Source: an uncultured Holophagae bacterium (GTDB taxonomy: Bacteria; Acidobacteriota; Thermoanaerobaculia; Thermoanaerobaculales; Sulfomarinibacteraceae). Taken from it: 64,000 bases of DNA. Under the pieces are notes generated by a model, which worked only from the letters and a program-made list of their open reading frames with translations, had not been told where the DNA came from and did no database searches. Position 1 is the first letter of the stretch. The number at the start of each line of letters is the position of its first letter. The stretch is taken from positions 48,298 to 112,297 of the forward strand of contig CAWJPY010000020.1 of the NCBI GenBank assembly GCA_963844865.1. The letters are read 5' to 3'. Positions 185 to 63,656 of this stretch are shown here, one piece after another. The position numbers and the translations under genes were made by a program.

Positions 185-214
185 GAGGCGTAGCGCTTCG
201 GGAGCACCAGACAG

Positions 215-227
215 GGTGCCTGGCACC
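215..227. repeat. solo X-type palindrome GGTGCCTGGCACC with leader cgggagcaccagacag
   Basis: Exact 13-bp palindrome. The leader is shared with other X left ends. Confidence 0.8.
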
Positions 228-250
228 CCCTCTGGCCTCCCCAGCGACCT

Positions 251-646
251 TCAGGTGTTGGGGTGGAGGAGGCGCCAGGTCATCGCCCGCACGTGGTCGA
301 AGCCGTCCATGGCGTTCTGTGCTGCGGACGGACTGACGGCTCCTGTCGCGGCGAGGAGCCGCAGGTGGCTGTATCTCTTGCTCCGGGAGCACCAGAGAGG
401 GTGCCAGGCACCGCCGCAAATGAAGCGAAAGGGATTCTCGGACCGTCTTCGACGGTGCCTGGCACCCCCTTTGGCGAACCTCACGCGTCTCAAGTTCGCG
501 GGCACCGAGCTCGCGGAGCGAATCACCTGATCGCCGATCGGTTTGAGCTGCGCCGGCAGCCTCATCACGAGCTTGATCGCAGCGCCCGCCGCTTCGAGCG
601 CCAAGCGATGAGCAGCGAGACCAGTGCTAGGGATCGCGTTGAGCAT
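251..646 (-). pseudogene. four-helix-bundle protein paralog (23S rRNA IVS protein family) whose conserved core is replaced in frame by an X element
   Basis: The ORF aligns to the intact copy at 53435..53788 (LAAHRLALEAA..DQVIRSASSVPANL and HLRLLAATGAV..FDHVRAMTWRLL). The 27-aa segment AEGHGRSGRDRLHHWRIAYASAKEVDT is replaced by 41 aa encoded by the X repeat (..GGARHRRRRSENPFRFICGGAWHPLWCSRS..). Confidence 0.7.
400..466 (+). repeat. X element copy a (subfamily 2), inside four-helix-bundle gene copy 1
   Basis: GGTGCCAGGCACC (400-412), then 41 nt, then GGTGCCTGGCACC (454-466). Confidence 0.85.
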
Positions 647-791
647 GGTCACCTCCGGGTCGTTCATGCCCCCTCTCACAAGCCGGTGGCCGGCCCAGGT
701 CAAGGGTGCGAAGCACCGGGCTCCGAGCCCGGCTTGCCCTTGACCTGGGCCGGCCACCGGCTACGTTCTCAGACGAACGACCCGGAGTGAC
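647..791 (-). promoter_or_regulatory. long fold-back covering the SD and start codon of four-helix-bundle gene copy 1
   Basis: ggtcacctccgggtcgttc (647-665) is the reverse complement of gaacgacccggag-tgacc (775-792). An inner stem pairs ggcccaggtcaaggg with cccttgacctgggcc. Confidence 0.6.
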
Positions 792-3446: not shown

Positions 3447-4979
3447 TCACTCCCGCGACGCAGTGGTGGGAGCGGCCTCCTCCACCGGCGCGGTCTTCGC
3501 CTTCTCGTTCAGGCTGTCGTCGATGCCCGCGATCCGCTTCACCATCTCCTTGCGGCCCTCGATGTCGTACTGGCTGGTGATGGCGATGGACTCCATGATG
3601 GGCGAGCCGCCCCCGTGGTAGTTGCCCACCATGTTGATGCCGCCCGAAGCCGAGCACAGGACGTCGCCCATGTACATCCAGAACTTGGCCGCGTTCTCCG
3701 GGTGGACGTCGGGGTTGCGGGTGATGTACTTGAGGAGCAGGTCCCGGGTCTCGGGGTTGAGGAGGTCGCCCTCGTAGGGGAAGGTGGCCGGCATGCCGCC
3801 CGAGATGTCGGTGAGGATCTCGGCCTCCCGGTACACCGCCTCGCCGGTGAGGCAGCGGCCCACGTTGCAGTAGATGGAGTGGGGGATGTAGCTGCCGGGG
3901 CCGAAGGGCACCGAGCCCATGCCCGGGATGTACACCTCGGGCTTGCCCAGGTCGGAGGCGGTGTAGCCCGCGGCGTAGCCCAGCTCGGAGGTCATGATGA
4001 TCTCGGCCAGCTTGTCGCGGACGTGGGAGGCCTTGGCGATGCCGTTGTACTCCGCCGCCAGGGCCGCCGTGCCCAGCAGGAGGTCGCCGATGGCCGGCTT
4101 GCAGCCGGAGTAGCTGTGGCGGTGGAAGAGGGCGAAGAGCAGGGCCAGGATGCCGCCCATCTGCCACTCCCCGGCCAGGAACACCCGCTCCCACGGGACG
4201 AAGCAGTCCTCGAAGATCATGTACGAGTCGGTGGCGCCGGGCGCGAAGCCGCGCCTGAGCTCCTTGCGGTCCCGCAGGTTGTGCACCGTCACCACCTGCT
4301 TGAGACCGTCCCAGTCGCCGGGGACGGCGAAGGCCACCGCCCAGTCCGCCTCCTCGGGGCGCAGCTGCCGGGTGGGCACCACCAGCACCTCGTCGGCCAC
4401 CGCGGCCTCGGAGATGTGGACTTTGCAGCCGGACACCACGATCCCGTCGGGACGTCGCTCCGTGATGTGCACGTAGGCGTCGGGATCGGGCTGCTCGGCG
4501 GGCCGCAGCATGCGGTGGCCCTTGACGTCTGTCTGGGCGCAGCAGCCCACCAGGTCCTCGCGCTGGAAACGCTCCAGCCACTTCTTGAAGTTGGTGTGGT
4601 ACGAGGTCTTGCCCTGATTCAGGCGGTCCGCCTCGTAGGACACGTTGTAGATGGCGTTGGTGGCGTCGATGCCCATGCAGCGCTGGATGCAGCCGCCCAC
4701 CTTCTGACACAGGAACCGGGTCATGTCCTGCTTCTTGTGCAGGTCCCCCGTGGACTGGTGGATGTGGGTGAAGCGGTTGATCTTCTCCCCCGTGAGGTGG
4801 GAGATCGCCGTGCACAGGCCCTCGTTCGCGGGCTTGAGCGCCTCATCGAAGGTGGTCCCCATCACCTCCAGGCAGGGCTGCATCATGTCGTCGGTGCGGG
4901 ACACCTTGCTCCCGCCCACGTACAGGTTGCGCTTCATCCGACCCAGGCGCTCGATGTACTGCTCCTTGGTCCTCAGCAT
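3447..4979 (-). CDS. abfD: 4-hydroxybutyryl-CoA dehydratase/vinylacetyl-CoA isomerase-like (AbfD family)
   Basis: INRFTHIHQST, CIQRC and HRHSYSGCK match the AbfD [4Fe-4S] ligand motifs as I recall them. ATG 4979 is preceded by GGGGAGG. Confidence 0.75.
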   Translation of the reverse strand: MLRTKEQYIERLGRMKRNLYVGGSKVSRTDDMMQPCLEVMGTTFDEALKPANEGLCTAISHLTGEKINRFTHIHQSTGDLHKKQDMTRFLCQKVGGCIQRCMGIDATNAIYNVSYEADRLNQGKTSYHTNFKKWLERFQREDLVGCCAQTDVKGHRMLRPAEQPDPDAYVHITERRPDGIVVSGCKVHISEAAVADEVLVVPTRQLRPEEADWAVAFAVPGDWDGLKQVVTVHNLRDRKELRRGFAPGATDSYMIFEDCFVPWERVFLAGEWQMGGILALLFALFHRHSYSGCKPAIGDLLLGTAALAAEYNGIAKASHVRDKLAEIIMTSELGYAAGYTASDLGKPEVYIPGMGSVPFGPGSYIPHSIYCNVGRCLTGEAVYREAEILTDISGGMPATFPYEGDLLNPETRDLLLKYITRNPDVHPENAAKFWMYMGDVLCSASGGINMVGNYHGGGSPIMESIAITSQYDIEGRKEMVKRIAGIDDSLNEKAKTAPVEEAAPTTASRE

Positions 4980-5111
4980 GGCTCGACCTCCCCGACGGGA
5001 TCGCAGTAGTGATTCTTGATGATAGGGGAGTGGTCCCACCCTGTCCAGGAGGGAGGCGGCGGCACGTGGGCATGCCCTCGAGCAAGGGGACGAGATCGCG
5101 TGTACGGCGAG

Positions 5112-5380
5112 CTGCGTCGGCGACAGCGGCAGTTCACAGTGGCCGGGACCGGCGTCAGCGGCCAGCGGCAGCGTCGCCGATCAGCGACCGGGGCAGCGAG
5201 CAGCGACCGCGACCGGCGGCGGCCGGCGGCAGCCTCCGCGACGCCCCGCAGTGATTCGCGACCATCTGCACGGGACGCTGTCGCCGGGCGCCGACCGCTG
5301 CCGCTGGACGCTGGCGCTGAACGCTGGCGCTGCCGCGGTCCGGCGGTCCTGTCGCCGCCGCTGACCACCGTCGTCGCCTG
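5112..5380. repeat. Z fold-back: CAGCG-sense arm (about 5112-5215) facing CGCTG-sense arm (about 5274-5380), with no cargo
   Basis: Left arm has cagcggcag..gtcagcggccagcggcagcg..gatcagcgacc..gcagcgagcagcgacc. Right arm has gacgctgtcgcc..ccgctgccgctggacgctggcgctgaacgctggcgctgcc. Confidence 0.6.
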
Positions 5381-5446
5381 CGGAATAGGGGTCGCGGGGC
5401 GGCAGTTGCCAGGGGCAGGCTCGGGCCAGGCAAGGAGTGGAGCCAG

Positions 5447-6514
5447 ATGAGCGGCGGCCGCGACGTCATCGATCGTCCCCAGGGCCCCCGCCCCGGCGAG
5501 GACCTGGACGTGGGGAAGGTGCTGCCCTTCCTCAGACACGCCCTCCCCGACGTGGAGGACGAGGCGGAGGTCCTGCAGTTCCCGGCCGGCTACTCCAACC
5601 TCACCTACCTGCTGCGCGTCGGCGGGCGCGAGCTGGTGCTGCGGCGGCCGCCACCGGGGAGCAAGCCCGCCAGCGGGCACGACATGAAGCGCGAGTACAC
5701 CATCCTGGACGCGCTCCACGGCCACTACCCGTACTGCCCCAAACCCGTCCTCTACGTCGAAGATCCCGAGGCGCTGGGCTGCCCCTTCTACGTCATGGAG
5801 CGCATCAGGGGGATCATCGTGCGCCGCTCGTTCCCGCCCCGGGCCGCGGACCACGAGACGGTCCGCGCGATCTGCGAAGGCCTGGTGGATGCCCTCGCCG
5901 AGCTCCACCTCCTGGACCGGGACGAGGTGGGGCTGTCCGGCCTCGGCCACCCGGAGGGCTACGTGGAGCGCCAGGTGGAGGGGTGGAGCCGGCGCTACCG
6001 TCGGGCACGGACGCCCGACGTGCCCGACTTCGAGGAGGTCATGTCCTGGCTGGCGCGCTGCAGACCGGTGGAGAGCCCGCGCCCGGCCATCATCCACAAC
6101 GACTTCAAGCTGGACAACGTGGTCCTGGATCCTCAGGACCCGCGGCGCCTCATCGGTGTCCTGGACTGGGAGATGGCCACCGTCGGCGATCCTCTCATGG
6201 ACCTGGGCGAGACCCTCTCCTACTGGATCCAGGACGACGACCCCCCCGAGCTGAGGGGCCTCGCCATGACCCCCACCGACGCCCCCGGGGCCCTGCGGCG
6301 GGAGGAGATCATCCAGCGCTATGCGGCGGCCACGGGCTGCGCGGTGGACCACCTCGACTTCTACTACTGCTTCGGTCTTTTCCGGCTCGCCGTGATCTCC
6401 CAGCAGATCTACTACCGCTACTACAAGGGCCAGTCCCACGACCCGCGCTTCGGGATGCTGGGCTACTCGGTGCGCTGCCTGGAGAGCGTCTGCCGCAGCA
6501 TCGTGGACGCGTAG
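5447..6514 (+). CDS. phosphotransferase (APH/choline-kinase-like) family protein
   Basis: 355 aa with catalytic loop IIHNDFKLDNVVL and VLDWEMATVGDPLMDL. Confidence 0.75.
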   Translation: MSGGRDVIDRPQGPRPGEDLDVGKVLPFLRHALPDVEDEAEVLQFPAGYSNLTYLLRVGGRELVLRRPPPGSKPASGHDMKREYTILDALHGHYPYCPKPVLYVEDPEALGCPFYVMERIRGIIVRRSFPPRAADHETVRAICEGLVDALAELHLLDRDEVGLSGLGHPEGYVERQVEGWSRRYRRARTPDVPDFEEVMSWLARCRPVESPRPAIIHNDFKLDNVVLDPQDPRRLIGVLDWEMATVGDPLMDLGETLSYWIQDDDPPELRGLAMTPTDAPGALRREEIIQRYAAATGCAVDHLDFYYCFGLFRLAVISQQIYYRYYKGQSHDPRFGMLGYSVRCLESVCRSIVDA

Positions 6515-6515
6515 C

Positions 6516-6650
6516 GTCGGCGATCAGCGGCCGTGACCGCGAGCAGCGGCAGCGACGGCGATCCGCGACAGCGGACCGTGCCAGCGGCGGCGGAGTGAAC
6601 GGCGTCGGCGACAGCAACCAGCGACCGCGGCAGCGACCGGGACCGCGCCC
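6516..6650. repeat. Z arm (CAGCG sense)
   Basis: gcgatcagcggcc..gagcagcggcagcgacggcg..cgacagcgg..cagcgaccgcggcagcgacc. Confidence 0.6.
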
Positions 6651-6695
6651 GTGATGATCCACGAGAGGCTTCGAGAGCACCAGAGAGGGTGAGAG

Positions 6696-6762
6696 GGTGC
6701 CTGGCACGCCGTCTTGATTCGACAGGACGCGGATCGCTGCATTCGAAAGCGTGCCTGGCACC
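6696..6762 (+). repeat. X element copy b (subfamily 1, slightly degenerate ends)
   Basis: GGTGCCTGGCACg, then ccgtcttgattcgacaggacgc..cattcgaaag, then cGTGCCTGGCACC. Confidence 0.8.
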
Positions 6763-6794
6763 CGCTCTGGCCTATCCGACGCGTAGGCAACGGC

Positions 6795-6923
6795 GACGCG
6801 CCGATTCTTTCGGCGCGTTCCCCGAGGTTGCCACCGCTGACACTTTTCCGGTCCCCACGCGAGGCGCGGCCGGCACGCGTCGCTCCGGAAAAGTGTCACC
6901 AGTGGCACGCCCGAGGGACGCGC
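6795..6923 (+). repeat. Y element copy 2 (reference copy)
   Basis: 5' mini-hairpin GCGCCGAttcttTCGGCGC. Arms are TTGCCACCGCTGACACTTTTCCGG (6828-6851) and CCGGAAAAGTGTCACCAGTGGCA (6885-6907). Tail is CGCCCGAGGGACGCGC. Confidence 0.85.
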
Positions 6924-6960
6924 TGTTCTCTCGACGGCCGCTGCCCCCGTGAGCAGAGAG

Positions 6961-7027
6961 GGTGCCAGGCACCGTCACGATCGAGCCGAGAAGGGTAGAC
7001 GCCGCATCTTCAACGGTGCCTGGCTCC
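6961..7027 (+). repeat. X element copy c (subfamily 2, right end degenerate)
   Basis: GGTGCCAGGCACC, then 41 nt, then GGTGCCTGGCtCC. Leader is gagcagagag. Confidence 0.7.
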
Positions 7028-7058
7028 CACTCTGGCAAACCCGACGCTTCTTCGAGCG

Positions 7059-8685: not shown

Positions 8686-10110
8686 ATGCGACGCTTCGAC
8701 GCGATCGTGCTCGGTTGCGGGCCCGGAGGGGAGCGTGCGGCCATCCAGGCGGCCAGGGCCGGACGCTCGGTGGCGGTGGTGGAGCAGGCCAACGTGGTGG
8801 GGGGGAACCGGGTCAACTGGGGGACCATCCCCTCCAAGACGCTGCGCGAGAGCGCCGTCTTCGTGCGCAACCTGACCCGGAACAAGATGGAGGGCATCCG
8901 GGTCGAGATCGCCGAGGAGATCACGGTCGCCGACTTCATGTATCGCGAGCGCCGGGTGGTGCAGCGGGAGCTGGAGCTGATCAACGAATCCCTGGCCCGG
9001 TACCACGTGGAGGTCATCGAGGGTCACGGGCGCTTCGCCGACACCAACACCGTCACCGTCTCCGCTCCCGACGGCGAGGTGCGGGAGACGCTGGTCGGCG
9101 ACGTCATCGTCATCGCCACCGGATCGCGCCCCAACCGCCCCCGGGACGTGCCCTTCGACGGCGAGCTGGTCTTCGACTCGGAGAGCATCCTGCACCTGCC
9201 GAGCATGCCCCGCTCCATGGTCGTCCTCGGCGCGGGGGTCGTCGGTGTGGAGTACGCCTCCATCTTCGCCGCCCTGGGCATCGCGGTGACCCTGGTGGAC
9301 ACCCGCGATCGGCTGCTGCCCTTCTTCGACAGGGAGATTGCCGGCGTGCTGGCCCACGAGCTGGAGCGGTCAGGCGTCACCACGGTCCACGAGCAGCACC
9401 ACACCACCATCGAACGCGTCACGGCCCCCCGTCCCCACGTGCGCTGCCACACCGATGCCTCGGAGGTGTTCGAGGCGGATGTCCTCCTGTACTGCGTGGG
9501 CCGCCAGGGCAACAGCGACGACATCGGCCTGGACGCTATCGGTCTGACGGCCAACCCCTACGGGCAGCTCCAGGTCAACGAGCACTACCAGACCGCCCAC
9601 CCCCACATCTACGCCGTGGGCGACATCGTCGGCTACCCGGCCCTGGCCTCCACCTCCATGGAGCAGGGCCGGCGCGCCATTCGCCACGCCTTCGCGATCT
9701 CCGGTCCCAACCTGGCCGAGGACGAGCTCCCCTTCGCCATCTACTCCATCCCCGAGGTGAGCTACATCGGCCTCACCGAGGAGGCCCTCATCGAGCGCGG
9801 GGTCGAGTACGTGTCGGGGCGCGGCAACTACGACAAGAACCCGCGGGGGCAGATCATCGGCGACCGCTCCGGGCTGCTCAAGCTCCTGTTCTCCGTGGAA
9901 ACCCTGGAGCTGCTGGGCGCCCACATCATCGGTTACAGCGCGTCGGAGCTCATCCACATCGCGCAGGCCTTCCTGCGCGCCCGGGCCACCGCCGTGGTCA
10001 TCGCCGAGACGCTGTACAACTACCCGACCCTGTCCGACTGCTACCGGCACGCCGCCCAGGTCGCCCTGGCCGAGCACTACCGCCGCACCGGGCGCCAGGC
10101 TTGGGCGTGA
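8686..10110 (+). CDS. sthA: soluble pyridine nucleotide transhydrogenase-like flavoprotein (SthA family)
   Basis: [35 protein letters not shown] and a pyridine-nucleotide-disulfide-oxidoreductase dimerisation end. A GGAGG sits upstream of ATG 8686. Confidence 0.75.
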
Positions 10111-10477: not shown

Positions 10478-10570
10478 TGTCAGCGGCGGCGACCGCGGAC
10501 AGCGACCGCGATCGGTGTCAGCAATCAGGGACAGCGGCAGCGCTCTGCGACGGCGGTCAGCGGCGGTGAT
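10478..10570. repeat. Z arm (CAGCG sense)
   Basis: gtcagcggcggcgaccgcggacagcgaccgcgatcgg..gacagcggcagcg..ggtcagcggcgg. Confidence 0.6.
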
Positions 10571-10714: not shown

Positions 10715-10760
10715 TGCGGTGGGAGAAGACCCTGTCGGTGCACCCTGCGATGTCAAAGCC

Positions 10761-10828
10761 GGTGCCAGGCACCCCGTCTTGATTTGAAAGGCACGCGGAT
10801 CGCTCCCTCCGAACGGGTGCCTGGCACC
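10761..10828 (+). repeat. X element copy d (subfamily 1)
   Basis: GGTGCCAGGCACC, then ccgtcttgatttgaaaggcacgcggatcgc..ccgaacg, then GGTGCCTGGCACC. Confidence 0.85.
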
Positions 10829-10847
10829 GGCTCTTTCTCTGCAGACC

Positions 10848-12688
10848 TCAGAACCTGTACTCGCCGTCCCTCACGCGGGCGTGGATGTCGGGAGTGAGGG
10901 GCCGGTACGACGGCTCGCCGGGGAGGAGGACGAAGAGGGGGTCGGCGACCAGGGCCGGGTCGAACGCCTCGTTCCGGAGGCGCACCCGCTTGATCTTGTG
11001 GGTGGGGGTCGACTCGAGGTCGGAGCACAGGCGCAGGAACCTGGGCACCGCGTACGAAGGCAGGTAACGCTCGAGGTGGGAGGCGAGGCCCGCCAGGTCC
11101 AGGTGCTCGGACGTTCCCTCCGGGACGACGGCGATCATGCCGGCGCGCCCGTCTCCGCCGGGCATCGTCACGCCGTAGGCCGCCGCCAGCGCCACGCCGG
11201 GAAAGCTGTTCACCACCTTCTCGACCTCGGTGGTGGAGACGTTCTCCCCCTTCCAGCGGAAGGTGTCGCCGGTGCGGTCGGAGAACTGGACGTGGCCCCA
11301 GCCCATGGGGCGCACCAGGTCGCCGGTGTCGAACCATGCGTCGCCGGCGGCGAAGACGTCGTGCAGGATCTTGGTCTGGGTCGCCTCTGGGCTCGTGTAA
11401 CCGGCGAAGGGGTTGGACGCGGAGATCTCGCCGAGGAGGAGACCGGCCTCGCCGACCTTCACCCGCTCCATCCACCCGCCTGGACCGCGCACCGGTTCCT
11501 CGTTGTCCACGTCGTAGCGGACCACGGCGTAGGGCACCAGGCAGACCCCCACCGTGCGGTCCAGGTTCAGCAGGTTCACGAAGTAGAGGTTGGACTCGGC
11601 GGCGCCGTAGATTTCGTAGACGTGGGTGATGCCGAACCGATGCTTGAAGGTGTCCCAGATGTCGGGGCGCAGGCCGTTGCCGATGACCTTGCGCAGGGGG
11701 TGGTCGCGGTCGTCGGGCCGCGGTGGCTGCTTCACCAGGTAGCGGCAAGCTCGCCCACGTAGCACCAGATGGTGGCGTCGAAGCGCCGCACGTCGTCGAG
11801 GAAGCGGCTGGCGCTGAACTTGCGCTGGATGGCGACGGCGGCGCCCCCCGCGAACACCGCCGGCCAGCTCAGGGCGATGGCGTTGGTGTGGAAGAAGGGC
11901 AGGGGCACGAACAGGGTGTCGCCCGGCTTGATGTCGAGCACCACCCGGCCGTTGAGGTAGCGGGACTTGACCAGCCGGCCGTGGGGGATGACCGCCGCCT
12001 TGGGCATGCCGCCGGTGGTGCCGGAGGTGAAGACGTAGGCGATGGGGTCCGACGGCGTCACCGTGGCCGTGGTGGGCGGATTGCCGCAGGGGCATGAGGC
12101 CGCCGCGGCGACGAGGTCGACGAAGCCCGCGGGCGTGGGTGTCTTGCCCCGGTCGGGCACCCAGAGGAGCGTCTGCTCCTCGCCGGGCGCCAGGTCCGGC
12201 AGCACCTCCTGGAAGGGACCGAGCATCTCCTCGCCGATGACGAAGGCGCGGGCCGGGTTGAGGGCGAGGCAGTGGCGGAGGGAGTCGAGGCGGAGGTTGG
12301 TGTTGATCAAAGCGCTGACGGCGCCGATCTTGGCCAGGGCCGAGTAGATGACCAGCAGCTCCGCCCGGTTCTCCAGGACCACGGCCACCACGTCCCCCTT
12401 GCCGATGCCCAGGGACGTGAAGTGGTGAGCGTGCCGATTCGCCGCCGCGTTGAACTGGGCCCACGTGAGGTCGGTCTGAGGCGATTTGATGGCGGGGTGT
12501 GCGGGGTATGCCGCGGCGTTCTCCTCCAGCATGCTCCCCCAGGACTCCCGGTTCTCAGCGTCCACGCGCGCCATGCTGCGCAGGGCCGGGAGGATGCGGG
12601 GGAGCCGCCAGGAGAGGCGGAGGAGGGCGCCGAGAAAGCGGGGCAAGGACACGCGGGCGGCGGAGCTCGTCTGTGGCGCGTCGTCCAT
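10848..12688 (-). pseudogene. very-long-chain acyl-CoA synthetase / fatty-acid transport protein-like, one frameshift near 11747
   Basis: The N-terminal 318-aa ORF (YVFTSGTTGGMPKAAV AMP motif) ends ..IWCYVGELAATW. The C-terminal part continues in another frame as (C)RYLVKQPPRPDD..FDTGDLV..WKGENVST. One nt is missing between GAGCT and TGCCGC. Confidence 0.8.
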
Positions 12689-12841
12689 CCGTCCCCCTCC
12701 TCGACCCGCCGTCGGCTGCGGCGTGCAATCAATCTAGGGAGCGGCGCGGCAGGCGTCAAGAAGAGGCCGCAGGCGGCCCGTCGCTGCGCTCGGCGGTCAT
12801 CGCAGTGATCAGCGAGGTCTCGCTCCGAGACCAGCGGAGAG

Positions 12842-12908
12842 GGCGCCAGACACGCCGTCTTGATTCGAGAGCCCACTCATCGCTTCATGGGAAAGCGTGC
12901 CTGGCACC
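12842..12908 (+). repeat. X element copy e (subfamily 1, left end degenerate)
   Basis: GGcGCCAGaCACg, then ccgtcttgattcgagagcccactcatcgcttcatgggaaag, then cGTGCCTGGCACC. Confidence 0.7.
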
Positions 12909-12984
12909 CCCTCTGTCATCGCCGGAGCGTCTTCGTGCCACCATGTATCGATCGGCGACGGCGAAGCGAGAGTAAGATCGCGCC

Positions 12985-13775
12985 ATGTCCGACGCATTCG
13001 ACCGGCTCGTTGGCATCATGGACCGGCTCCGGGACCCGGGGGCTGCCCCTGGGACCGGGAGCAGACCCTGGACACCCTCACCGGCTACCTTCTGGAGGAG
13101 GCCCACGAGGTTGTGGACGCGGCCGCCGCAGGCGAGCCCGAACGCCTGCGCGAGGAGCTCGGCGACCTCCTCCTGCAGGTGGTCTTCATGGCCCGCATCG
13201 CCTCCGAGAAGGGCTGGTTCGACGCCTCGGGGGTGTGCGACGCCATCAGCGAGAAGCTGATCCGGCGACACCCCCACGTGTTCGGGGAACGGGAGGTGGA
13301 GGGGGCCGCCGAGGTGGTGCGCAACTGGGAGGAGATCAAGCGCGCCGAGCACGCCGCGGAGCCGGAGTCCTCGACCCTGGACGGGGTACCCCGCTCCCTG
13401 CCGGCCCTCCTCAAGGCCTTCCGCATGACCGAGAAGGCGGCGGCGGTGGGCTTCGACTGGCACAAGCCCGGCGACGTCATGGGCAAGCTCCACGAGGAGG
13501 TGGGCGAGCTCGAAGCCGAGCTGCCGCGCCTGGAGGGGGAGGACCCGGCGCGGGTGCGGGAGGAGCTGGGGGACGTGCTCTTCGTCATGGCGAACCTCGC
13601 CCGTCACCTCGGAGTTGAGCCGGAGACCGCCCTGCAGGCCACCAACACCAAGTTCAAGACGCGCTTCCAGGCCATGGAGGCCGCAGCCCGCGCGTCCGGC
13701 CGCCGTCTGGCCGACATGTCCCTGGCCGAGCAGGACGAGCTGTGGGAGCAGGCGAAGAAGACGGCGGGTTGCTGA
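12985..13775 (+). CDS. mazG: nucleoside triphosphate pyrophosphohydrolase MazG, with one apparent frameshift in a C/G run near 13036-13042
   Basis: MSDAFDRLVGIMDRLRDP (frame a) continues as GGCPWDREQTLDTL..EEAHEV..RRHPHVF (frame b). It has a second MazG domain. Confidence 0.8.
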
Positions 13776-13776
13776 G

Positions 13777-13789
13777 GGTGCCTGGCACC
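13777..13789. repeat. solo X-type palindrome GGTGCCTGGCACC, 1 nt after the mazG stop
   Basis: Exact 13-mer followed by cgctctggcctatccgg, as at 6762-6780. Confidence 0.8.
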
Positions 13790-13822
13790 CGCTCTGGCCT
13801 ATCCGGAGTGACATCTCTCGGG

Positions 13823-13950
13823 CCGCGCCGATTCTGTCGACGCGCTTCCCGAGATTGCCACCGCTGACACTTTCACGACCGCACGTCACGCACGGTCGGT
13901 CCGCCCCACTTCGTGAAAGTGTCACCAGTGGCACGTCCGAGGGACGCGCC
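13823..13950 (+). repeat. Y element copy 3
   Basis: Arms are TTGCCACCGCTGACACTTTCACGA and TCGTGAAAGTGTCACCAGTGGCA. The distal stem is changed in a compensatory way relative to copy 2. Confidence 0.85.
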
Positions 13951-14030
13951 CTTCTCTCGGAGGACGCTGGCCCAAGTGAGCGGATCGCTGCCGCTGACCT
14001 CGGGGTAGGCCCTGAGAGAAGGGAGCGTCG

Positions 14031-17715: not shown

Positions 17716-17754
17716 GGTCCGACGGCCGTCGACGCACGTTGCGACGTCAAACCC

Positions 17755-17821
17755 GGTGCCAGGCACCTCGTCTTGATTCGACAGTACGCACATCGCTTCA
17801 TGCGAAAGGGTGCCTGGCACC
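17755..17821 (+). repeat. X element copy f (subfamily 1, reference copy)
   Basis: GGTGCCAGGCACC, then tcgtcttgattcgacagtacgcacatcgcttcatgcgaaag, then GGTGCCTGGCACC. Confidence 0.9.
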
Positions 17822-17854
17822 GGCTCTCGTGCTCCCCGAAGTGACGCCTTTCGC

Positions 17855-17981
17855 GACGCGCTGATTCTGTCGACGCGTTCCCCGAGGTTGCCACCGCTGA
17901 CACTTTCACAACCTCGAGCCACGCTCCAGCGGATGGTGTCACCCGTGAAAGTGTCACCAGTGGCACGCCCGAGGGAGGGGC
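17855..17981 (+). repeat. Y element copy 4
   Basis: Arms are TTGCCACCGCTGACACTTTCAC and GTGAAAGTGTCACCAGTGGCA. The apex is unrelated to other copies. Confidence 0.85.
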
Positions 17982-18039
17982 TGAGGCGTAGCGCTCCGGG
18001 AGCACCAGAGACTCGTGAGTCGCTGGCCCGCCTGGGCCG

Positions 18040-18118
18040 AACGCTGCCGCCGAACGCTGCCAGCTGCTGCGGACGCTGCTCACGGGCGCTGCTCGCGGAC
18101 GCGGACGCGGGGGTAGGG
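18040..18118. repeat. Z arm (CGCTG sense) with 13-mer gccgccgaacgct (about 1.8 copies) and the end motif gcggacgcggacgcggggg
   Basis: gaacgctgccgccgaacgctgccagctgctgcggacgctgctc..gcggacgcggacgcggggg. Confidence 0.6.
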
Positions 18119-20587: not shown

Positions 20588-20764
20588 GACGTTAGCAGTT
20601 AGAAGATAGAAGGCCGCCCGCCCACCCTCGCCACTCCATGCGACGGCGCGAGAGGTGAGGTGTGTCCCCTCCCACCAGCGGCGGTGCCGGAGCAGCGACC
20701 ATGACCGCGACAGCGGTGGCGGCAGTTAACAGCGTCCCCGGCACGTCTCTGAACGGGGTGATCG

Positions 20765-21024
20765 TCATGGTTTCGGGTTGAGCAGGCGCCAAGTCATTGC
20801 CCGCACACGGTCGAAGCGATCCAGCGCGGCCTGCGCCGAGGACCGACTGACAGCTCCCGTTGCGGCGAGGAGCCGCAGATGGCTGACCTCTCGCTTCGGG
20901 AGCACCAGAGAGGGTGCCAGGCACCGCCGCACATGAAGCGAAAGGGATTCTCGAACCGTTTTCGACGGTGCCTGGCACCCGCTCTGCCGCACCGGCCGTG
21001 GCCTTCCGCGAGATTCGCGGCCAC
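20765..21024 (-). pseudogene. four-helix-bundle protein remnant (5' half missing, X element replacement, frame broken)
   Basis: (V)AANLAEGHGR, then X-encoded ..GARHRRKRFENPFRFMCGGAWHPLWCSRSE, then in another frame HLRLLAATGAVSRSSAQAALDRFDRVRAMTWRLLNPKP. Confidence 0.75.
20913..20979 (+). repeat. X element copy g (subfamily 2)
   Basis: GGTGCCAGGCACC, then gccgcacatgaagcgaaagggattctcgaaccgttttcgac, then GGTGCCTGGCACC. Confidence 0.85.
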
Positions 21025-21151
21025 CGGCTACGTTCTCAGACGAACGACCCGGAGGCGACCATGCCGCCGAACGCTGCCGCCGAACGCTGCCCCGGCACCG
21101 TTGCGGGTGGGAGGGGGCACTTCTGACTTCTAACTTCTAACTTCTAACGTC

Positions 21152-22426
21152 TCACTTCCCTGTCACCGCGCGCCGCGCCCGGCCCAGGGCCACGTAGGCC
21201 ACGAGGACCTCGAAGCGGGCCGGCTCGAGAGGGAACCGGTACCGGCGAACGACGGTCGGCCCCCCGCCTGCGGCCACGGCGATGATCGCGGTGCCTGCCG
21301 GCACCCCGTCGGCGGCGGACGCCGTCCCGACGGTGGCGACGCCGACGCCGGCGGAGAAGCGGCGACGCACCGCCTCGGCCATGAGGACAGCCGCCTCGTC
21401 ACTGAGGAGGCCGGCTCGCTCCAGGTCGGCCGGCGGGATATCGAGCCCGCCGCTGACGCTGGGAAGGGTAGGGGCCAGGACACCGCCAAGGTAGACCTCT
21501 CCGACCCCGGCGACCGGGTCCAGGAGCTGGGCCACGGCGCCGGCGGTGCAGCCCTCGGCCGCGGCCAGGGTCGTCCCGTGACGCTGGAGGTCCTCCACCA
21601 CGCTTTCGGCGAAGGTGGTGTCCACCCGCCCCGGGCCCCAGGCGTAGACGTGCCTGCCGAGGCGTTGCCTGGCATCCGCCGCGATGCCTGCGAGCAGCTC
21701 GTTGCCACGGTCGTCGGCGATCCCGCGCAGCACCAGGCGCACGTGGATCTCAGGAAAGGTGGCCCGGTACTGCACCACGAGCTCCGAGCCCTCGGGGAGG
21801 TCCGCGCCGAGGCCCTCGAGCCGGCGTGCCACGTCACTTTCCCCCGCCCCGAAGATCTTGAGCACGGCCACGTCGGGCAGGGCCGGTCGCAGCCGGACAC
21901 GGAGCTCGGGGAGCACCGTCGTCTCGAAGATGTCCACGATCTCCCGGGGGACACCGGGCATGAAGTAGAGCCGGCAGCCGTCCGCGTCCACGGCGAACCC
22001 CACCGCAGTGCCCGAAGGGTTGGGGAGGATGGCTGCGCCTGCGGGGAGATCCGCCTGCTTCTCGTTGTTGGGGCTCATGGGGCGGCCACGGGCGGCGAAG
22101 AAGTCCCGGACGTGACGGAGCGCCTCGGGTGAGCGGACCAGGGGAACGCCGAAGGCCTCGGCCGCGCAGGCGGCGGTGAGGTCGTCACCGGTAGGTCCCA
22201 GCCCCCCGGAGACCAGCACCACGTCGCAGCGTGGGGCCATCTGGCGGAGGGCCGTCACCACCTCCGGGAGGTCATCGCCCACCGAGGTGTGGCGGACCAC
22301 CCGGTAGCCCTCGCCGTCCAGCCGCTCGGAGAGGGCCGCCGCGTTGGTGTCCACCAGCCGGCCCTCGATGAGCTCGTCCCCGATGGTCAGGATCTCGATC
22401 CGATTCGTTCCGCGTGTCAAGGTCAC
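21152..22426 (-). CDS. cinA: competence/damage-inducible protein CinA (MoCF-binding plus PncC-like nicotinamide-nucleotide amidase domains)
   Basis: 424 aa with ILTIGDELIEGRLVDTNAA..VSGGLGPTGDDLT and C-terminal ..GCTAGAVAQLL. GTG start. Confidence 0.85.
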   Translation of the reverse strand: MTLTRGTNRIEILTIGDELIEGRLVDTNAAALSERLDGEGYRVVRHTSVGDDLPEVVTALRQMAPRCDVVLVSGGLGPTGDDLTAACAAEAFGVPLVRSPEALRHVRDFFAARGRPMSPNNEKQADLPAGAAILPNPSGTAVGFAVDADGCRLYFMPGVPREIVDIFETTVLPELRVRLRPALPDVAVLKIFGAGESDVARRLEGLGADLPEGSELVVQYRATFPEIHVRLVLRGIADDRGNELLAGIAADARQRLGRHVYAWGPGRVDTTFAESVVEDLQRHGTTLAAAEGCTAGAVAQLLDPVAGVGEVYLGGVLAPTLPSVSGGLDIPPADLERAGLLSDEAAVLMAEAVRRRFSAGVGVATVGTASAADGVPAGTAIIAVAAGGGPTVVRRYRFPLEPARFEVLVAYVALGRARRAVTGK

Positions 22427-26701: not shown

Positions 26702-27997
26702 ATGACGCAGACGAGCGCGTTGGGCATCAACGGCCTGGGGAGGATCGGCAAGCTGGCGGTGTGGACCGAGGTGGCCGGCCGGCGCTTCGACAGACTGGTC
26801 GTGAACACCGGCCGCGGGGTGGGGCGCTCCCTCGACGCCCTGGCCCACTACCTCTCGGTGGACAGCACCTACGGCGCCTTGGGCCGATTCCTGCATGGAT
26901 GGGGTGGTGAACGGGGCTGTGTGCGCATTGCGGATCGCGACCGCCAGCTCCTGGACATCGACGGCGTGACCGTGCAGCTCCTCACCCAGCATCGCAACCC
27001 CAAGGACATCGGGTGGGCGGACCACGGGGTGCGCCTGGTGGTGGACACCACCGGCGTCTTCCGGGATCCGACCCATCCCGCGTCCCATCCGGGGGGCAGC
27101 CTGCAGGGCCACCTGGAGGCGGGGGCGCAGGCCGTGCTGGTGAGTGCCGCCTTCAAGCTCTCGGACCGCGGCGCGCGGCTCCCGGAGGAGAGCGTGATGC
27201 TGATCTACGGCATCAACCACCAGGTCTACGACCCCGCGCACCACTCCATGATCTCCGCCGCCTCGTGCACCACCACCGCCCTGGCCCACATGATGCTGCC
27301 CCTGCTCAACCACCAGCTCACCCACCAGATGCTCACCGCCTCCATGTCCACGGTCCACGCCGCCACCAACTCCCAGAGCGTGCTCGACACCGTGCCCAAG
27401 AGCGGGGCCAAGGACCTGCGCAAGAACCGGTCGGTGATGAACAACATCATCCTCACCTCCACCAACGCCGCCCAGGCGCTGGAGCAGGTGATCCCGGAGA
27501 TCTCAACCATCGGGTTCCTCGCGGACTCGGTGCGCATCCCCATCCCGACCGCCTCCCTCATCATCCTCAACTGCACCTTCCAGTCCCGCCTCGACGACTA
27601 CGGCGCCAGCCTCATCAACCGCGGTTCGGTGAACGCCATCTACGCCGACTACGCCCGCGGCCCCGAAAGCGGAGTGGTGTTCTCCAACGACCAGAACGTG
27701 TCCACCGACATGGTGGGCGAGCCGGCGGCGGTGGTCATCGAGGGCTCGGAGACCCACGCCCGGACCGGCTTCACCCACGTGGACCTGGCCGAGCTGGGGC
27801 TGAGTGCCGCCACCGGCGGCCTGGAGCGGGTGGAGGTGCCGGTCACCCACCTCAAGCTGTTCGGGTGGTACGACAACGAGCTCGGCTCCTACACCAGGCG
27901 CATGAGCCAGCTCACCCACTTCGTGGCCGAGCGCCTGGGAATCGAGACGCCCAAGAGCATCACGGCGGCAAAGCCGGTGCCAGGCACCCCGTCTTGA
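26702..27997 (+). CDS. glyceraldehyde-3-phosphate dehydrogenase-like oxidoreductase (atypical, 431 aa)
   Basis: GINGLGRIGK Rossmann motif and a catalytic-Cys region SAASCTTTALAHM. GAGGAGAAGGG precedes the ATG. The last ~8 codons and the stop lie inside X copy h. Confidence 0.7.
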   Translation: MTQTSALGINGLGRIGKLAVWTEVAGRRFDRLVVNTGRGVGRSLDALAHYLSVDSTYGALGRFLHGWGGERGCVRIADRDRQLLDIDGVTVQLLTQHRNPKDIGWADHGVRLVVDTTGVFRDPTHPASHPGGSLQGHLEAGAQAVLVSAAFKLSDRGARLPEESVMLIYGINHQVYDPAHHSMISAASCTTTALAHMMLPLLNHQLTHQMLTASMSTVHAATNSQSVLDTVPKSGAKDLRKNRSVMNNIILTSTNAAQALEQVIPEISTIGFLADSVRIPIPTASLIILNCTFQSRLDDYGASLINRGSVNAIYADYARGPESGVVFSNDQNVSTDMVGEPAAVVIEGSETHARTGFTHVDLAELGLSAATGGLERVEVPVTHLKLFGWYDNELGSYTRRMSQLTHFVAERLGIETPKSITAAKPVPGTPS

Positions 27998-28042
27998 TTT
28001 GACAGTACGCGCACCGCCTCAGCCGAAAGGGTGCCTGGCACC
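27976..28042 (+). repeat. X element copy h (subfamily 1)
   Basis: GGTGCCAGGCACC, then ccgtcttgatttgacagtacgcgcaccgcctcagccgaaag, then GGTGCCTGGCACC. Confidence 0.9.
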
Positions 28043-28053
28043 CGCTCTGGCGT

Positions 28054-29136: not shown

Positions 29137-29170
29137 GATGGAACCATGGTACCCGTACGGCCCGGTTCCG

Positions 29171-29265
29171 CGACAGCGTCAGCGAGCAGGGGCAGCGAGC
29201 AGGGTCGGCCACGGCGGCAGTCATCAGCGACGGCGTTCGGCGGCAGCGTCCGCGGCAGCGAACAG
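29171..29265. repeat. Z arm (CAGCG sense)
   Basis: cgacagcgtcagcgagcaggggcagcgagc..catcagcgacggcg..ggcagcgtccgcggcagcgaac. Confidence 0.6.
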
Positions 29266-29307
29266 AGGCGGTGGTCGGCATGTCCACTCACGGGCAAGGT
29301 CAGACGG

Positions 29308-29373
29308 GGTGCCAGGCAGCATTCGGGTGAATCGATGTGCGTGCTGTCGAATCAAGACGGGGTGCCAGGCACC
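29308..29373 (-). repeat. X element copy i (subfamily 1, reverse)
   Basis: GGTGCCAGGCAgc, then attcgggtgaatcgatgtgcgtgctgtcgaatcaagacgg, then GGTGCCAGGCACC. Confidence 0.8.
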
Positions 29374-29477
29374 CGGTCTGGTGCTCGCGAAGCACCTCCC
29401 TCGGGTGCGACGCTGTCTGATCCCCCGCTGTAGGCCTCGACGGGGGGCGCCCGGCCGCGGCTGTGGCGGGTGAGAGG

Positions 29478-53309: not shown

Positions 53310-53434
53310 CAGCGTCCTCGTCAGCGATCGGGGGCAGCGACAGCGATCGGCGACGGCGGCCGCGGCAGTCAACAGCGTCGGCGATCAGCGCACAGCGCCC
53401 GTCGCCCCCGGTACGTCACTGAAAGTGGAGGCCG

Positions 53435-53788
53435 TCAGGCGTGCGGGTTGAGGAGGCGCCATGTCATCGCCCGCACGCGGTCGAAGAGATCCAGGGCGGT
53501 CTGTGCCCAGGATCGATTGACGGCTCCTGTCGCGGCGAGGAGCCGCAGGTGGGTGTCGACCTCTTTAGCGGAGGCATACGCAATCCGCCAGTGGTGCAGC
53601 CGGTCCCGACCGGACCGACCGTGGCCTTCCGCCAGGTTCGCGGGCACCGAGCTCGCCGAGCGAATCACCTGGTCGGCAATCGCCTTCAGGGGCGCCGGCA
53701 ACCTCATTACGAGCTTGATAGCCCCGCTCGCAGCTTCGAGCGCCAAGCGATGAGCAGCAAGGCCGGGTTGGGTGTTGGCATCGAGCAT
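53435..53788 (-). CDS. four-helix-bundle protein (23S rRNA intervening-sequence protein family; Avd-like fold)
   Basis: 117 aa: MLDANTQPGLAAHRLALEAA..ADQVIRSASSVPANLAEGHGRSGRDRLHHWRIAYASAKEVDTHLRLL... SD GGAGGTG lies 4 nt before ATG 53788. Confidence 0.8.
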   Translation of the reverse strand: MLDANTQPGLAAHRLALEAASGAIKLVMRLPAPLKAIADQVIRSASSVPANLAEGHGRSGRDRLHHWRIAYASAKEVDTHLRLLAATGAVNRSWAQTALDLFDRVRAMTWRLLNPHA

Positions 53789-53974
53789 GGTCACCTCCGG
53801 GTCGTTCATGCCTCCTCTCACAAGCCGGTGGCCGACCCATGTCAAGGGTGCTTCGCAGCTGCACAGCAGCTGCGAAGCACCGGACCATCGGTCCGGCCCA
53901 CCCTCGGCGAGGGTGGGCCCTTTACCTGGGCCGGCCACCGGCTACGTTCTCGGACGAACGACCCGGAGATGACC
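53789..53974 (-). promoter_or_regulatory. ~185-nt fold-back that can sequester the SD and start codon of the four-helix-bundle gene
   Basis: On the minus-strand RNA, GGUCAUCUCCGGGUCGUUC (53974-53956) can pair over 19 bp (one G-U) with GAACGACCCGGAGGUGACC (53807-53789). Perfect internal hairpins are GTGCTTCGCAGCTGC-aca-GCAGCTGCGAAGCAC and GGCCCACCCTC-ggc-GAGGGTGGGCC. Confidence 0.6.
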
Positions 53975-54000
53975 ATGCCGCCGATCGCTGCCGCCGATCG

Positions 54001-54573
54001 CTACGTCTGTCCGTCTCCGACCACGAGCATGGCGAGGCGGGAGGCGCCGCCGGAGAGGTCCCTGTGCAGCCGGAGGGGCGCCGGGATCTCCCTGAGGTCC
54101 GCCTGCGCCGGGCACTCCAGGCAGGCCAGGGCGCCGGGCGCCAGGAGGTCGCGGGCAAACGCGTGGGCGAGCGCTGAGAGCCCCTCCTGCCAGGACGTGA
54201 AGGGTGGATCCGCCCAGGCGAGGTCGAAGCGCTGGTCGCGCTTCAGGAGCGTCGTCAGTGCCGAGGCAACGGGCCTGAGCAGGATCTGCGCGTGCTCCCG
54301 CTCGACGCCGAGAGCCTCCCGATTGGCCTCGATCAACCTCGCCGCCGAGCGTTGTCGCTCCACGAACACCACCCGCGCCGCGCCGCGGGAGAGGGCCTCG
54401 AACCCCACCGCTCCGGAGCCCGCGTAGAGGTCGAGGAACGAGGCGCCGGTCACGCGGTCTGCGAGGACCGCGAAAGCCCGCTCGCGAAGGGCGTCGGGGG
54501 TGGGTCGCAGCGCCGTCCCGCGGCCCGGCCCCCGCAGGCGGCGCGACCGCCACTCGCCGCCGGTGATTCTCAT
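54001..54573 (-). CDS. rsmD: 16S rRNA (guanine966-N2)-methyltransferase RsmD
   Basis: 190 aa with LDLYAGSGAVGFEALSRGA and WADPPF. Confidence 0.85.
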   Translation of the reverse strand: MRITGGEWRSRRLRGPGRGTALRPTPDALRERAFAVLADRVTGASFLDLYAGSGAVGFEALSRGAARVVFVERQRSAARLIEANREALGVEREHAQILLRPVASALTTLLKRDQRFDLAWADPPFTSWQEGLSALAHAFARDLLAPGALACLECPAQADLREIPAPLRLHRDLSGGASRLAMLVVGDGQT

Positions 54574-58861: not shown

Positions 58862-58896
58862 GCCCGATTGTAGGGCGATCTTCTCCCGCGTCCGAG

Positions 58897-58970
58897 AGCA
58901 GCGACGGCGACCGCGATCCGCGGCAGCGACAACGTCAGCGATCAGCGTCGGCGGCAGCAGTCGGCGGTCT
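58897..58970. repeat. Z arm (CAGCG sense)
   Basis: gagcagcgacggcgaccgcgatccgcggcagcgacaacgtcagcgatcagcgtcggcggcagcag. Confidence 0.6.
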
Positions 58971-59097: not shown

Positions 59098-59115
59098 TTC
59101 GGATAAGCCAGAGCG

Positions 59116-59181
59116 GGTGCCAGGCAGCATTCGGATGAAGCGATGTGGGTGCTATCGAATGAAGACGGGGTGCCTGGCACC
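59116..59181 (-). repeat. X element copy j (subfamily 1, reverse)
   Basis: GGTGCCAGGCAgc, then attcggatgaagcgatgtgggtgctatcgaatgaagacgg, then GGTGCCTGGCACC. Confidence 0.8.
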
Positions 59182-59210
59182 GGCTTTGGCGTCGCGAGGT
59201 GCATCGACGG

Positions 59211-59223
59211 CGTGCCTGGCACC
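59211..59223. repeat. solo X-type palindrome (cGTGCCTGGCACC) with trailing ctgtctggtgctcccg
   Basis: It is the reverse complement of the cgggagcaccagacagGGTGCC module seen at 201-227. Confidence 0.75.
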
Positions 59224-59241
59224 CTGTCTGGTGCTCCCGAA

Positions 59242-59299: not shown

Positions 59300-61352
<2,053 letters not shown>

Positions 61353-63436: not shown

Positions 63437-63512
63437 TGACCGTAGCAGCGGCGGCGGTCAGCGACGGCGTCAGCGGCAGAGAACGGTGACAGCGAGGAGC
63501 GGCGGGCAACGA
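63437..63512. repeat. Z arm (CAGCG sense), left of Y copy 5
   Basis: gtagcagcggcggcggtcagcgacggcgtcagcggcag..gacagcgagg. Confidence 0.6.
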
Positions 63513-63513
63513 C

Positions 63514-63656
63514 GTGACGCCTCTCGCGACGCGCCGATTCTGTCGGCGCCTTCGCCGAGGTTGCCACCCCAGACGATGTTTCGAAGCCAGCGTTCAGCCA
63601 GGGCCGGTCGTCCCGCACCCGAACATCGTCGGGAGTGGCACGCCCGAGGGACGCGC
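63514..63656 (+). repeat. Y element copy 5 (variant arms with full compensatory replacement)
   Basis: Arms are TTGCCACCCCAGACGATGTTTCGAA and GAACATCGTCGGGAGTGGCA. The flanks are conserved (gcgccgattctgtcggcgcc..ccgagg and CGCCCGAGGGACGCGC). Confidence 0.85.

Follow-up and report, generated by a model that had tools for sequence, protein, structure and literature searches.

A dense palindromic repeat in an uncultured Holophagae bacterium is probably a REPIN-like doublet mobilised by a TIRYT-type transposase

Systems of repetitive extragenic palindromes (REPs), their inverted doublets (REPINs) and REP-associated tyrosine transposases (RAYTs) have so far been described mostly from Proteobacteria, with repeats that carry a GTAG foot. 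The RAYT subclasses associated with REPs are 2.2, 2.4, 2.5, 2.7 and 2.8 (PMC6006769). Another branch, the terminal inverted repeat-associated tyrosine transposases (TIRYTs), corresponds to TnpA-Y1 subclass 2.1 and to the group 1 RAYTs of Bertels; its terminal inverted repeats carry GGGGWSAS, and some of them are self-complementary or occur in dimers and clusters (PMC3733652). Its hallmarks are the motifs NH[VY]H and Y..LNP and a C-terminal helix-turn-helix (Quentin et al. 2018, PMC6006769), and the 16-mers flanking its genes are modestly repeated, with 12 occurrences (PMC5581495). Here we analyse a 64-kb stretch of DNA from an uncultured Holophagae bacterium (contig CAWJPY010000020.1; the whole stretch is called the window below), in which a short palindromic unit, the X element, recurs. 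X is probably a REP doublet of the REPIN kind that is mobilised in trans by a RAYT of the TIRYT, or subclass 2.1, type.

X is built on a 13-base core, GGTGCCWGGCACC (P), which is a perfect 6-1-6 palindrome and occurs either in pairs (doublets) or as a solo; copies are named below by the first base of their P or left P. The window has a G+C content of ~70%. Exact P occurs 15 times in it, compared with a mean of 0.01 in shuffled window sequence, which served as the chance level; no shuffle gets to 15. With up to two mismatches, there are 26 occurrences, compared with 5.3 expected. An earlier note on this DNA had placed ten paired copies and three solos, all of which are present on reading the sites and are recovered by an nhmmer profile made from the ten doublets; the profile has no other match in the window. 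The total of 23 palindromes per 64 kb corresponds to ~1 per 3 kb. The spacing is not a constant 41 nt, as had been claimed, and the doublet is P, 40-42 nt, P, with 42 nt at 10761 and 40 nt at 29308 and 59116. Two exact P separated by 41 nt, the unit given in the note, are found at 400, 17755, 20913 and 27976 only and not at the other six sites; at 10761 both P are exact but 42 nt apart, and the remaining doublets have one to three mismatches. A central A in the 5' P and a central T in the 3' P, read on either strand, are seen in eight of ten doublets and not in the other two. This pattern is predicted by inverted duplication of a directional unit. Once oriented, the ten doublets share one alignment register. 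The division into two internal subfamilies holds for the 'cgtcttgattcgacag' type, to which 29308 and 59116 belong on the opposite strand, but is incomplete, since 6961 represents a divergent third type.

Outside P, the doublets carry proximal 8-nt arms, CCAGAGNG on the left and CNCTCTGG on the right, with a variant CAAAGCC / GGCTYT. The outward inverted repeat noticed earlier is thus real, but it does not amount to a terminal repeat of ~20 bp; past the proximal arms lie several alternative modules of ~14 nt, arranged as a mosaic. The repeat unit is the proximal arm C(C/A)A(G/A)AGNG plus the 13-mer, and the doublet consists of two inverted copies of it. As a single strand, each doublet is predicted to form one long hairpin, with P paired to P (-46 to -64 kcal/mol and z of -3.2 to -5.9 when folded as RNA; z of -3.2 to -4.9 when folded as DNA). 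A solo is a single P between both arms and is predicted to form a simple stem-loop. Since the two P also stand to each other as direct repeats, a doublet could become a solo by slippage, with a loss of exactly 54 nt. The solos are presumably repeat units that lost their centre in this way. 'Double-foot' REPs have been put down to central deletion of a dimer (Quentin et al., PMC6006769), and the solo form matches this description.

When one genome per species (596 Gb) was scanned for P-(40-42 nt)-P pairs, at least 101 loci were found, whereas we estimate that ~0.002 would occur by chance. Among the matches listed, the pairs occur in Acidobacteriota, Planctomycetota, Verrucomicrobia, Omnitrophota, Alpha-, Beta- and Gammaproteobacteria, Desulfovibrio, Bdellovibrionota, Actinobacteria, Firmicutes (including the isolate Lederbergia graminis) and Spirochaetes. 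The spread of the 13-mer is patchy and covers ~10 phyla, and the G+C content of loci that are neither from Holophagae nor related to the window ranges from 36 to 73%. Two Holophagae metagenome-assembled genomes (MAGs) supply most of the matches listed, and their interiors are recognisably homologous to those of the window. The invariance of the 13-mer in the Holophagae copies results from how the loci were selected and is therefore not evidence. Related units are also present in Sulfomarinibacteraceae and Thermoanaerobaculia MAGs; among the matches listed, only the Sulfomarinibacteraceae MAG shares the window-type arms, and the alanine dehydrogenase of the window is 75% identical to a protein named as Sulfomarinibacteraceae.

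In the other taxa, the 13-mer is identical, and the interiors and flanks are lineage-specific and unrelated to those of the window. Complementary flanks particular to each lineage (AAAA/TTTT, AATT/AATT, CTTATG/CATAAG, TCAGAT/ATCTGA) lengthen P; the palindrome is extended by at least 4 bp in 89 of 579 distinct contexts, compared with ~0.4% expected. The 13-mer also occurs in these taxa as a solo or in irregularly spaced arrays, and symmetric double variants of P, GGTACCWGGTACC and GGTGTCWGACACC, are found. In a Hyphomicrobiales MAG (71-73% GC; loci L009, L014, L037, L054, L060, L061, L083 and L092), A4/T4 runs hug each 13-mer, and the 42-nt interior of the doublets is almost pure A+T, an arrangement that resembles paired bidirectional terminators. 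Viral contigs contain no P pairs 10-40 nt apart, so nothing points to a phage origin. In the literature, the exact 13-mer turned up only in unrelated eukaryotic papers and had no match in the main REP/RAYT papers and their supplements; the newer TIRYT literature yielded nothing relevant.

To find neighbours of the 13-mer, all open reading frames (ORFs) of the at least 101 loci were clustered without prior assumption. Among the matches listed, one family lies directly beside P clusters in six unrelated taxa: Planctomycetia, Treponemataceae, Allosphingosinicella, Omnitrophota, Oxalobacteraceae and a high-GC MAG labelled Enterobacteriaceae. The family is Pfam Y1_Tnp, and two members score over the curated cut-off of NCBIfam NF047646, the REP-associated tyrosine transposase. 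The best solved relative of the family profile is E. coli TnpA-REP (4ER8), which ranks above the IS200/IS605 transposases. P lies 53-115 nt upstream of the Y1 start codon at all six loci and flanks the gene on both sides at two. The linkage is replicated in metagenome contigs with P pairs at 10-40 nt (120 loci, 615 kb): nine further RAYT ORFs are found, every one beside P and eight flanked on both sides, whereas ~0.15 would be expected in 615 kb for a single-copy gene by our estimate. Altogether, the 13-mer stands beside a Y1 gene at 15 independent loci and flanks it on both sides at 10 of them, as in a REPtron. The other ORFs beside 13-mer arrays are ordinary genes (OmpA, FGGY kinase, hydrolases). 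The 13-mer-linked Y1 proteins of Planctomycetia and Omnitrophota are atypical (L028 2454-3638 (-) and L084 6368-7681 (+), respectively); the latter has the HUH motif DHVQ, no Y..NP motif and a C-terminal domain of ~250 aa, which recurs as a separate neighbouring ORF at 5098-5895 (+).

By BLASTP against the published TIRYT/RAYT alignment (supplement of Di Nocera et al. 2013, PMC3733652), the best match is a TIRYT, above the canonical RAYTs, for all 14 P-linked proteins compared. Two of them (L059 and L220) are 52% identical to Geobacter GSU2396. Several P-linked proteins have the NH[VY]H (HUH) and Y..LNP motifs, and a C-terminal helix-turn-helix is frequent in the wider family. The gene flanks of the 14 full-length 13-mer-linked loci contain no GGGGWSAS, which is present in loci L103-L105, ~45 nt upstream of the start and over the stop codon. 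Judged by these sequences, P is a second, palindromic partner motif within the TIRYT, or subclass 2.1, branch. Its half-site GGTGCCAGG agrees with a motif of other family members, GGGGTCAGG, at seven of nine positions by our reading, and a Pseudoduganella locus has an intermediate motif, GGTGCCTGACACC. The palindrome may correspond to two GGGGTCAGG-type inverted ends fused into one. In the Bipolaricaulota genome of L103, an IS110-family transposase gene (4129-5073) lies directly downstream of the GGGGTCAGG-type TIRYT gene. IS110/IS1111 elements target REP-like palindromes.

X has several features of a REPIN: an over-represented extragenic palindrome, an inverted pair that folds as one hairpin, and filled and empty sites. 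In the mechanism that we favour, a single-copy HUH Y1 nuclease/ligase (RAYT, TIRYT / subclass 2.1), encoded elsewhere in the genome, would recognise the 13-mer hairpin. Recognition would take place on single-stranded DNA, probably exposed at replication forks, by analogy with E. coli TnpA-REP and IS200/IS605. The enzyme would cut and rejoin the strand beside the hairpin, so that doublets would spread through non-coding DNA. From the linkage in other bacteria, we infer both the presence of the Y1 gene in the source genome and its action on the 13-mer.

Several observations weigh against this assignment. The canonical GT[AG]G foot is absent, with no GTAG or GTGG at the flanks of X. No Y1 ORF is present in the 64-kb window or in ~60 Holophagae loci, which fits a gene found once per genome and leaves the enzyme of the source genome to inference. 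Three close homologues of the Oxalobacteraceae RAYT carry GGGGTCAGG and not the 13-mer, so recognition specificity is not uniform and the 13-mer is not universal in the family. The interior structure lacks covariation, with no compensatory changes in 34 Holophagae copies, and no transposition event is directly observed in the comparisons of paralogues and relatives described below. Moreover, one survey finds no REP-like sequences around subclass 2.1 genes (Quentin 2018, PMC6006769), and another describes the branch as weakly repeat-associated (Bertels 2017). Accepting the assignment of X as probable, we put forward a broader proposal more tentatively, as something short of an even chance: GGTGCCWGGCACC could serve the largest RAYT branch as a recognition hairpin across phyla, and the enzymes of this branch would then drive REPIN-type populations from Firmicutes to Acidobacteria, by way of one conserved 13-bp core within lineage-specific stems.

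Copy 400 lies inside a member of PF05635, the 23S rRNA intervening-sequence / four-helix-bundle family, of which the window holds paralogues A and C and a remnant, B (Table 1). When filled A is aligned with empty C, ~57 nt are seen to be replaced by an X-bearing segment of ~100 nt. Insertion of X into a gene family, as proposed earlier, is thereby borne out: A holds X, C is intact, and B shares the left junction of A. Two syntenic relatives of the window (L106 and L107) have alanine dehydrogenases 77% and 75% identical to that of the window. In one of them, 21 kb of sequence contain no P. In the other, a decayed doublet separates the acetyl-CoA hydrolase and ferredoxin genes and a solo follows the ferredoxin gene; these two sites match neither copy 17755 nor copy 20913. 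Because the relatives are distant (75-77% amino-acid identity), the differences indicate turnover, not an observed transposition event. Two Holophagae species of 79% nucleotide identity, by comparison, have doublets at orthologous sites. Such a mixture of turnover and long-lasting occupation of fixed sites has been described for REPIN populations.

The earlier note had taken X for a mobile non-autonomous element that needs a protein coded elsewhere, and this view stands: relatives have X at different sites or lack it in 21 kb. It had modelled the element on a miniature inverted-repeat transposable element (MITE). A classical MITE would derive by deletion from a cut-and-paste insertion sequence (IS) and would be moved by a DDE transposase that acts on terminal inverted repeats and leaves target-site duplications. 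A near-constant length, inverted ends, internal variants and insertion into a gene would all suit a MITE. However, the target-site duplication that was to be looked for is not visible between A and C, where sequence is replaced instead, and the arms are mosaic past the proximal 8 nt. The conserved part of X is an internal perfect palindrome, doubled, and also solo or in irregular arrays elsewhere. The sole recurrent neighbour family at the at least 101 loci is the HUH Y1 enzyme (RAYT/TIRYT), found at the 15 loci described above, and no DDE transposase recurs. A classical MITE is therefore very unlikely, and the reading 'mobile, non-autonomous' is right in class and wrong in mechanism.

The genes next to X are ordinary chromosomal genes by Pfam: APH, amidase, NfeD, AMP-binding, MazG, alanine dehydrogenase, acetyl-CoA hydrolase, CinA, GAPDH-like, dienelactone hydrolase, ABHD18-like and GroEL. 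All window copies lie outside ordinary genes, clip the 3' end of a gene (an ORF takes its last codons and its stop from 27976) or interrupt the one PF05635 paralogue. Copies 6696, 6961 and 10761 are in convergent spacers, 12842 is in a divergent spacer, and tandem spacers hold copies as well. These positions bear on the possibility, also raised in the earlier note, that the 13-mer is the operator of a dimeric regulator or of a nucleoid-organising protein, marking promoters or chromosome sites. The perfect 6-1-6 symmetry, the symmetric double variants, the arrays of sites in some taxa and the C-terminal helix-turn-helix of many partner proteins would be expected of an operator. An operator is nevertheless extremely improbable: copies follow stop codons, separate convergent genes and interrupt an ORF; the spacers that hold copies in Holophagae are tandem, convergent and divergent in a near-random ratio of 28:8:11; the sites have no fixed position relative to gene starts; presence varies among relatives; and a patchy spread over ~10 phyla suits a mobile partner, not a conserved regulon. 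A sigma-54 promoter was also considered, as P contains TGGCAC, and was rejected, as no -12 TTGC lies 5 nt after the -24 TGGCAC. By direct reading, TGGCAC is followed by CCGCTCTGG in the window and by variable sequence in other taxa.

The seven window copies that can be assigned unambiguously are all downstream of a gene and co-oriented with it, which raises the possibility that a host RNA role, as intrinsic terminators or 3' mRNA stabilisers, is the main reason why the hairpins are kept and that their spread is incidental. E. coli REPs stabilise upstream mRNA. The strong hairpins of X and the terminator-like A4/T4 runs around the 13-mer in the Hyphomicrobiales MAG agree with such a role. The co-orientation is, however, not repeated in Holophagae (10 co-oriented and 18 opposed, on rough gene calls), and we therefore make no claim from orientation. 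Some copies are found in divergent promoter regions or within a gene, T-runs are missing from the window copies, and the linkage to RAYT genes would be left unexplained. No Rfam family matches at the gathering score, with only generic, spurious miRNA hairpins below threshold, and a tRNA search found none. An RNA role as the main reason for the hairpins is improbable; effects on the host, such as mRNA stabilisation or transcription termination by 3' hairpins, are likely by-products of a REPIN-like element.

Table 1 Copies of X and PF05635 genes in the window
Feature	Coordinates	Strand	Details
X doublet	392..474	-	P 400-412, 41 nt, P 454-466, 8-nt proximal arms; inside PF05635 paralogue A
X doublet	6688..6770	+	P 6696-6708 and 6750-6762, one mismatch each; between convergent APH and amidase genes
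X doublet	6953..7035	+	Divergent interior; P 6961-6973 exact, 7015-7027 one mismatch; 32 nt from amidase stop
X doublet	10753..10836	+	P 10761-10773, 42 nt, P 10816-10828; 20 nt past stop of AMP-binding gene (-)
X doublet	12834..12916	+	Most decayed copy, left P (12842) reads GGCGCCAGACACG; divergent AMP-binding/MazG spacer
X doublet	17747..17829	+	P 17755-17767, 41 nt, P 17809-17821; 40 nt after stop of 330-aa gene, upstream of alanine dehydrogenase
X doublet	20905..20987	-	Adjoins PF05635 remnant B; left junction as in copy A
X doublet	27968..28050	+	Covers last 7 codons and stop of GAPDH-like ORF 26702-27997
X doublet	29300..29381	-	40-nt interior; P 29308-29320 one mismatch, 29361-29373 exact; 3' end of dienelactone-hydrolase ORF
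X doublet	59108..59189	-	40-nt interior; between groEL (59300-60955, -) and ABHD18-like gene
Solo	207..235	.	P 215-227 between proximal arms CCAGACAG / CCCTCTGG; single hairpin
Solo	13775..13798	.	P 13777-13789, 1 nt after MazG stop; right arm only
Solo	59204..59232	.	P 59211-59223, one mismatch; 30 nt from doublet 59116
PF05635 paralogue A	251-757	-	Carries X; ORF still open; Pfam match lost
PF05635 remnant B	20765-20905	-	C-terminal remnant; left junction same as A
PF05635 paralogue C	53435-53938	-	Intact, without X

The AMP-binding gene beside copies 10761 and 12842 (10848-12688 (-)) is split over two overlapping frames, with the N-terminal domain in 11732-12688 and the C-terminal domains in 10848-12464, which suggests a frameshift or an assembly error.

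The X copies are embedded in a mosaic with two further recurrent modules, forming clusters like those of bacterial interspersed mosaic elements (BIMEs). A second intergenic element lies beside or between X copies (35-211, 6776-6951, 13803-13977, 17836-18009 and 63509-63650) and also around the X copies of L012 and L077. A long hairpin with a variable centre of ~40 nt can form when its module 1, GATTCTGTCGACGCGttCCCCGAGGTTGCCACCGCTGACACTTT, pairs with its module 2, AAAGTGTCACCAGTGGCACGCCCGAGGGA; the CCCCGAGGTTGCC part is also found in Holophagae, and Rfam has no family that matches. GC-rich quasi-periodic tracts of the CAGCGACNGCGAC type (periods 13, 19 and 25) are often 50-200 nt from X, at 5109-5223, 6524-6640, 10480-10567, 29167-29278, 53315-53388, 58882-58965 and 63456-63499; a similar tract at 20592-20768 (-) codes for a signal-peptide-like stretch of a 58-codon ORF.

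Each PF05635 copy adjoins a block of 13-bp tandem repeats. A perfect array of TGCCGCCGCTCAC repeated 18.5 times occupies 795-1034, and short arrays of sister units (TGCCGCCGAACGC, TGCCGCCGATCGC) are found at 21062-21091, 53976-54002, 18036-18061 and 5287-5332. Three of the 13-bp arrays come after a conserved block of ~60 nt, GGCCACCGGCTACGTTCTCAGACGAACGACCCGGAG..ATG (736-821, 21003-21088 and 53917-54002). As 13 is not a multiple of three, a change in copy number would put the small ORF beginning there into another frame. AT-rich heptamer tandem repeats (ACTTCTA, AAGTCTA, GGAATTT, GAATTCC, GTTAAAC) occur in spacers of this lineage of 67-71% GC, at 21119-21158 and 20590-20615 in the window and at 9861-10000, 12412-12546, 12862-12917 and 14130-14311 in L107; the sites differ between the window and the relative.

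As a probable REPIN-like element, X would widen the concept of REP/REPIN-RAYT systems to Acidobacteriota, at very high density, and to a RAYT branch whose DNA partner has been unclear. The fixed 13-base core provides a search handle for such systems in any genome, and the 13-mer is a simple substrate for biochemical tests of an uncharacterised group of HUH enzymes. X repeats account for much of the non-coding repetition in the window and truncate or extend the ends of ORFs, and they should be masked in annotation and assembly.

Compared with known systems, X is small, non-coding and dispersed and has inverted ends, like the classical MITEs (Correia, RUP, ERIC), but it has neither a target-site duplication nor a DDE partner, and its conserved part is an internal, repeated palindrome. 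As at the ends of IS200/IS605 elements (IS608, ISDra2), a Y1 HUH enzyme goes together with hairpins, which those elements have recognised on single strands; the partner genes of the 13-mer, in contrast, are not multi-copy IS, have no tnpB, and the repeats are dispersed without the gene. The TIRtrons and TIRYTs are closer (Di Nocera et al. 2013, PMC3733652): the P-linked proteins are likewise nearest to TIRYTs by BLASTP, and several of them and of their relatives show HUH/Y motifs and a helix-turn-helix. The flank differs, being the palindrome GGTGCCWGGCACC instead of GGGGWSAS, and the density in the window is far over that of the published families, which are 'moderately abundant'.

The closest resemblance is to the REP/REPIN-RAYT systems (E. 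coli REP/BIME, P. fluorescens REPINs; PMC3116915, PMC6006769). X differs from REPs in that it has no GT[AG]G foot, in that its core is a perfect 13-bp palindrome identical over ~10 phyla, whereas canonical REP families are lineage-specific, and in that the partners of its type are TIRYT / subclass 2.1 and not subclasses 2.2, 2.4, 2.5, 2.7 or 2.8. Like REPs, X is a short, dense, extragenic palindrome. Like REPINs, it forms inverted doublets that fold to a hairpin, with singlets alongside, occasionally lies in genes, and is kept at orthologous sites between species. It occurs within mosaic clusters with other motifs, as BIMEs do, and in other bacteria the 13-mer stands on both sides of a low-copy Y1 HUH gene, as in a REPtron.

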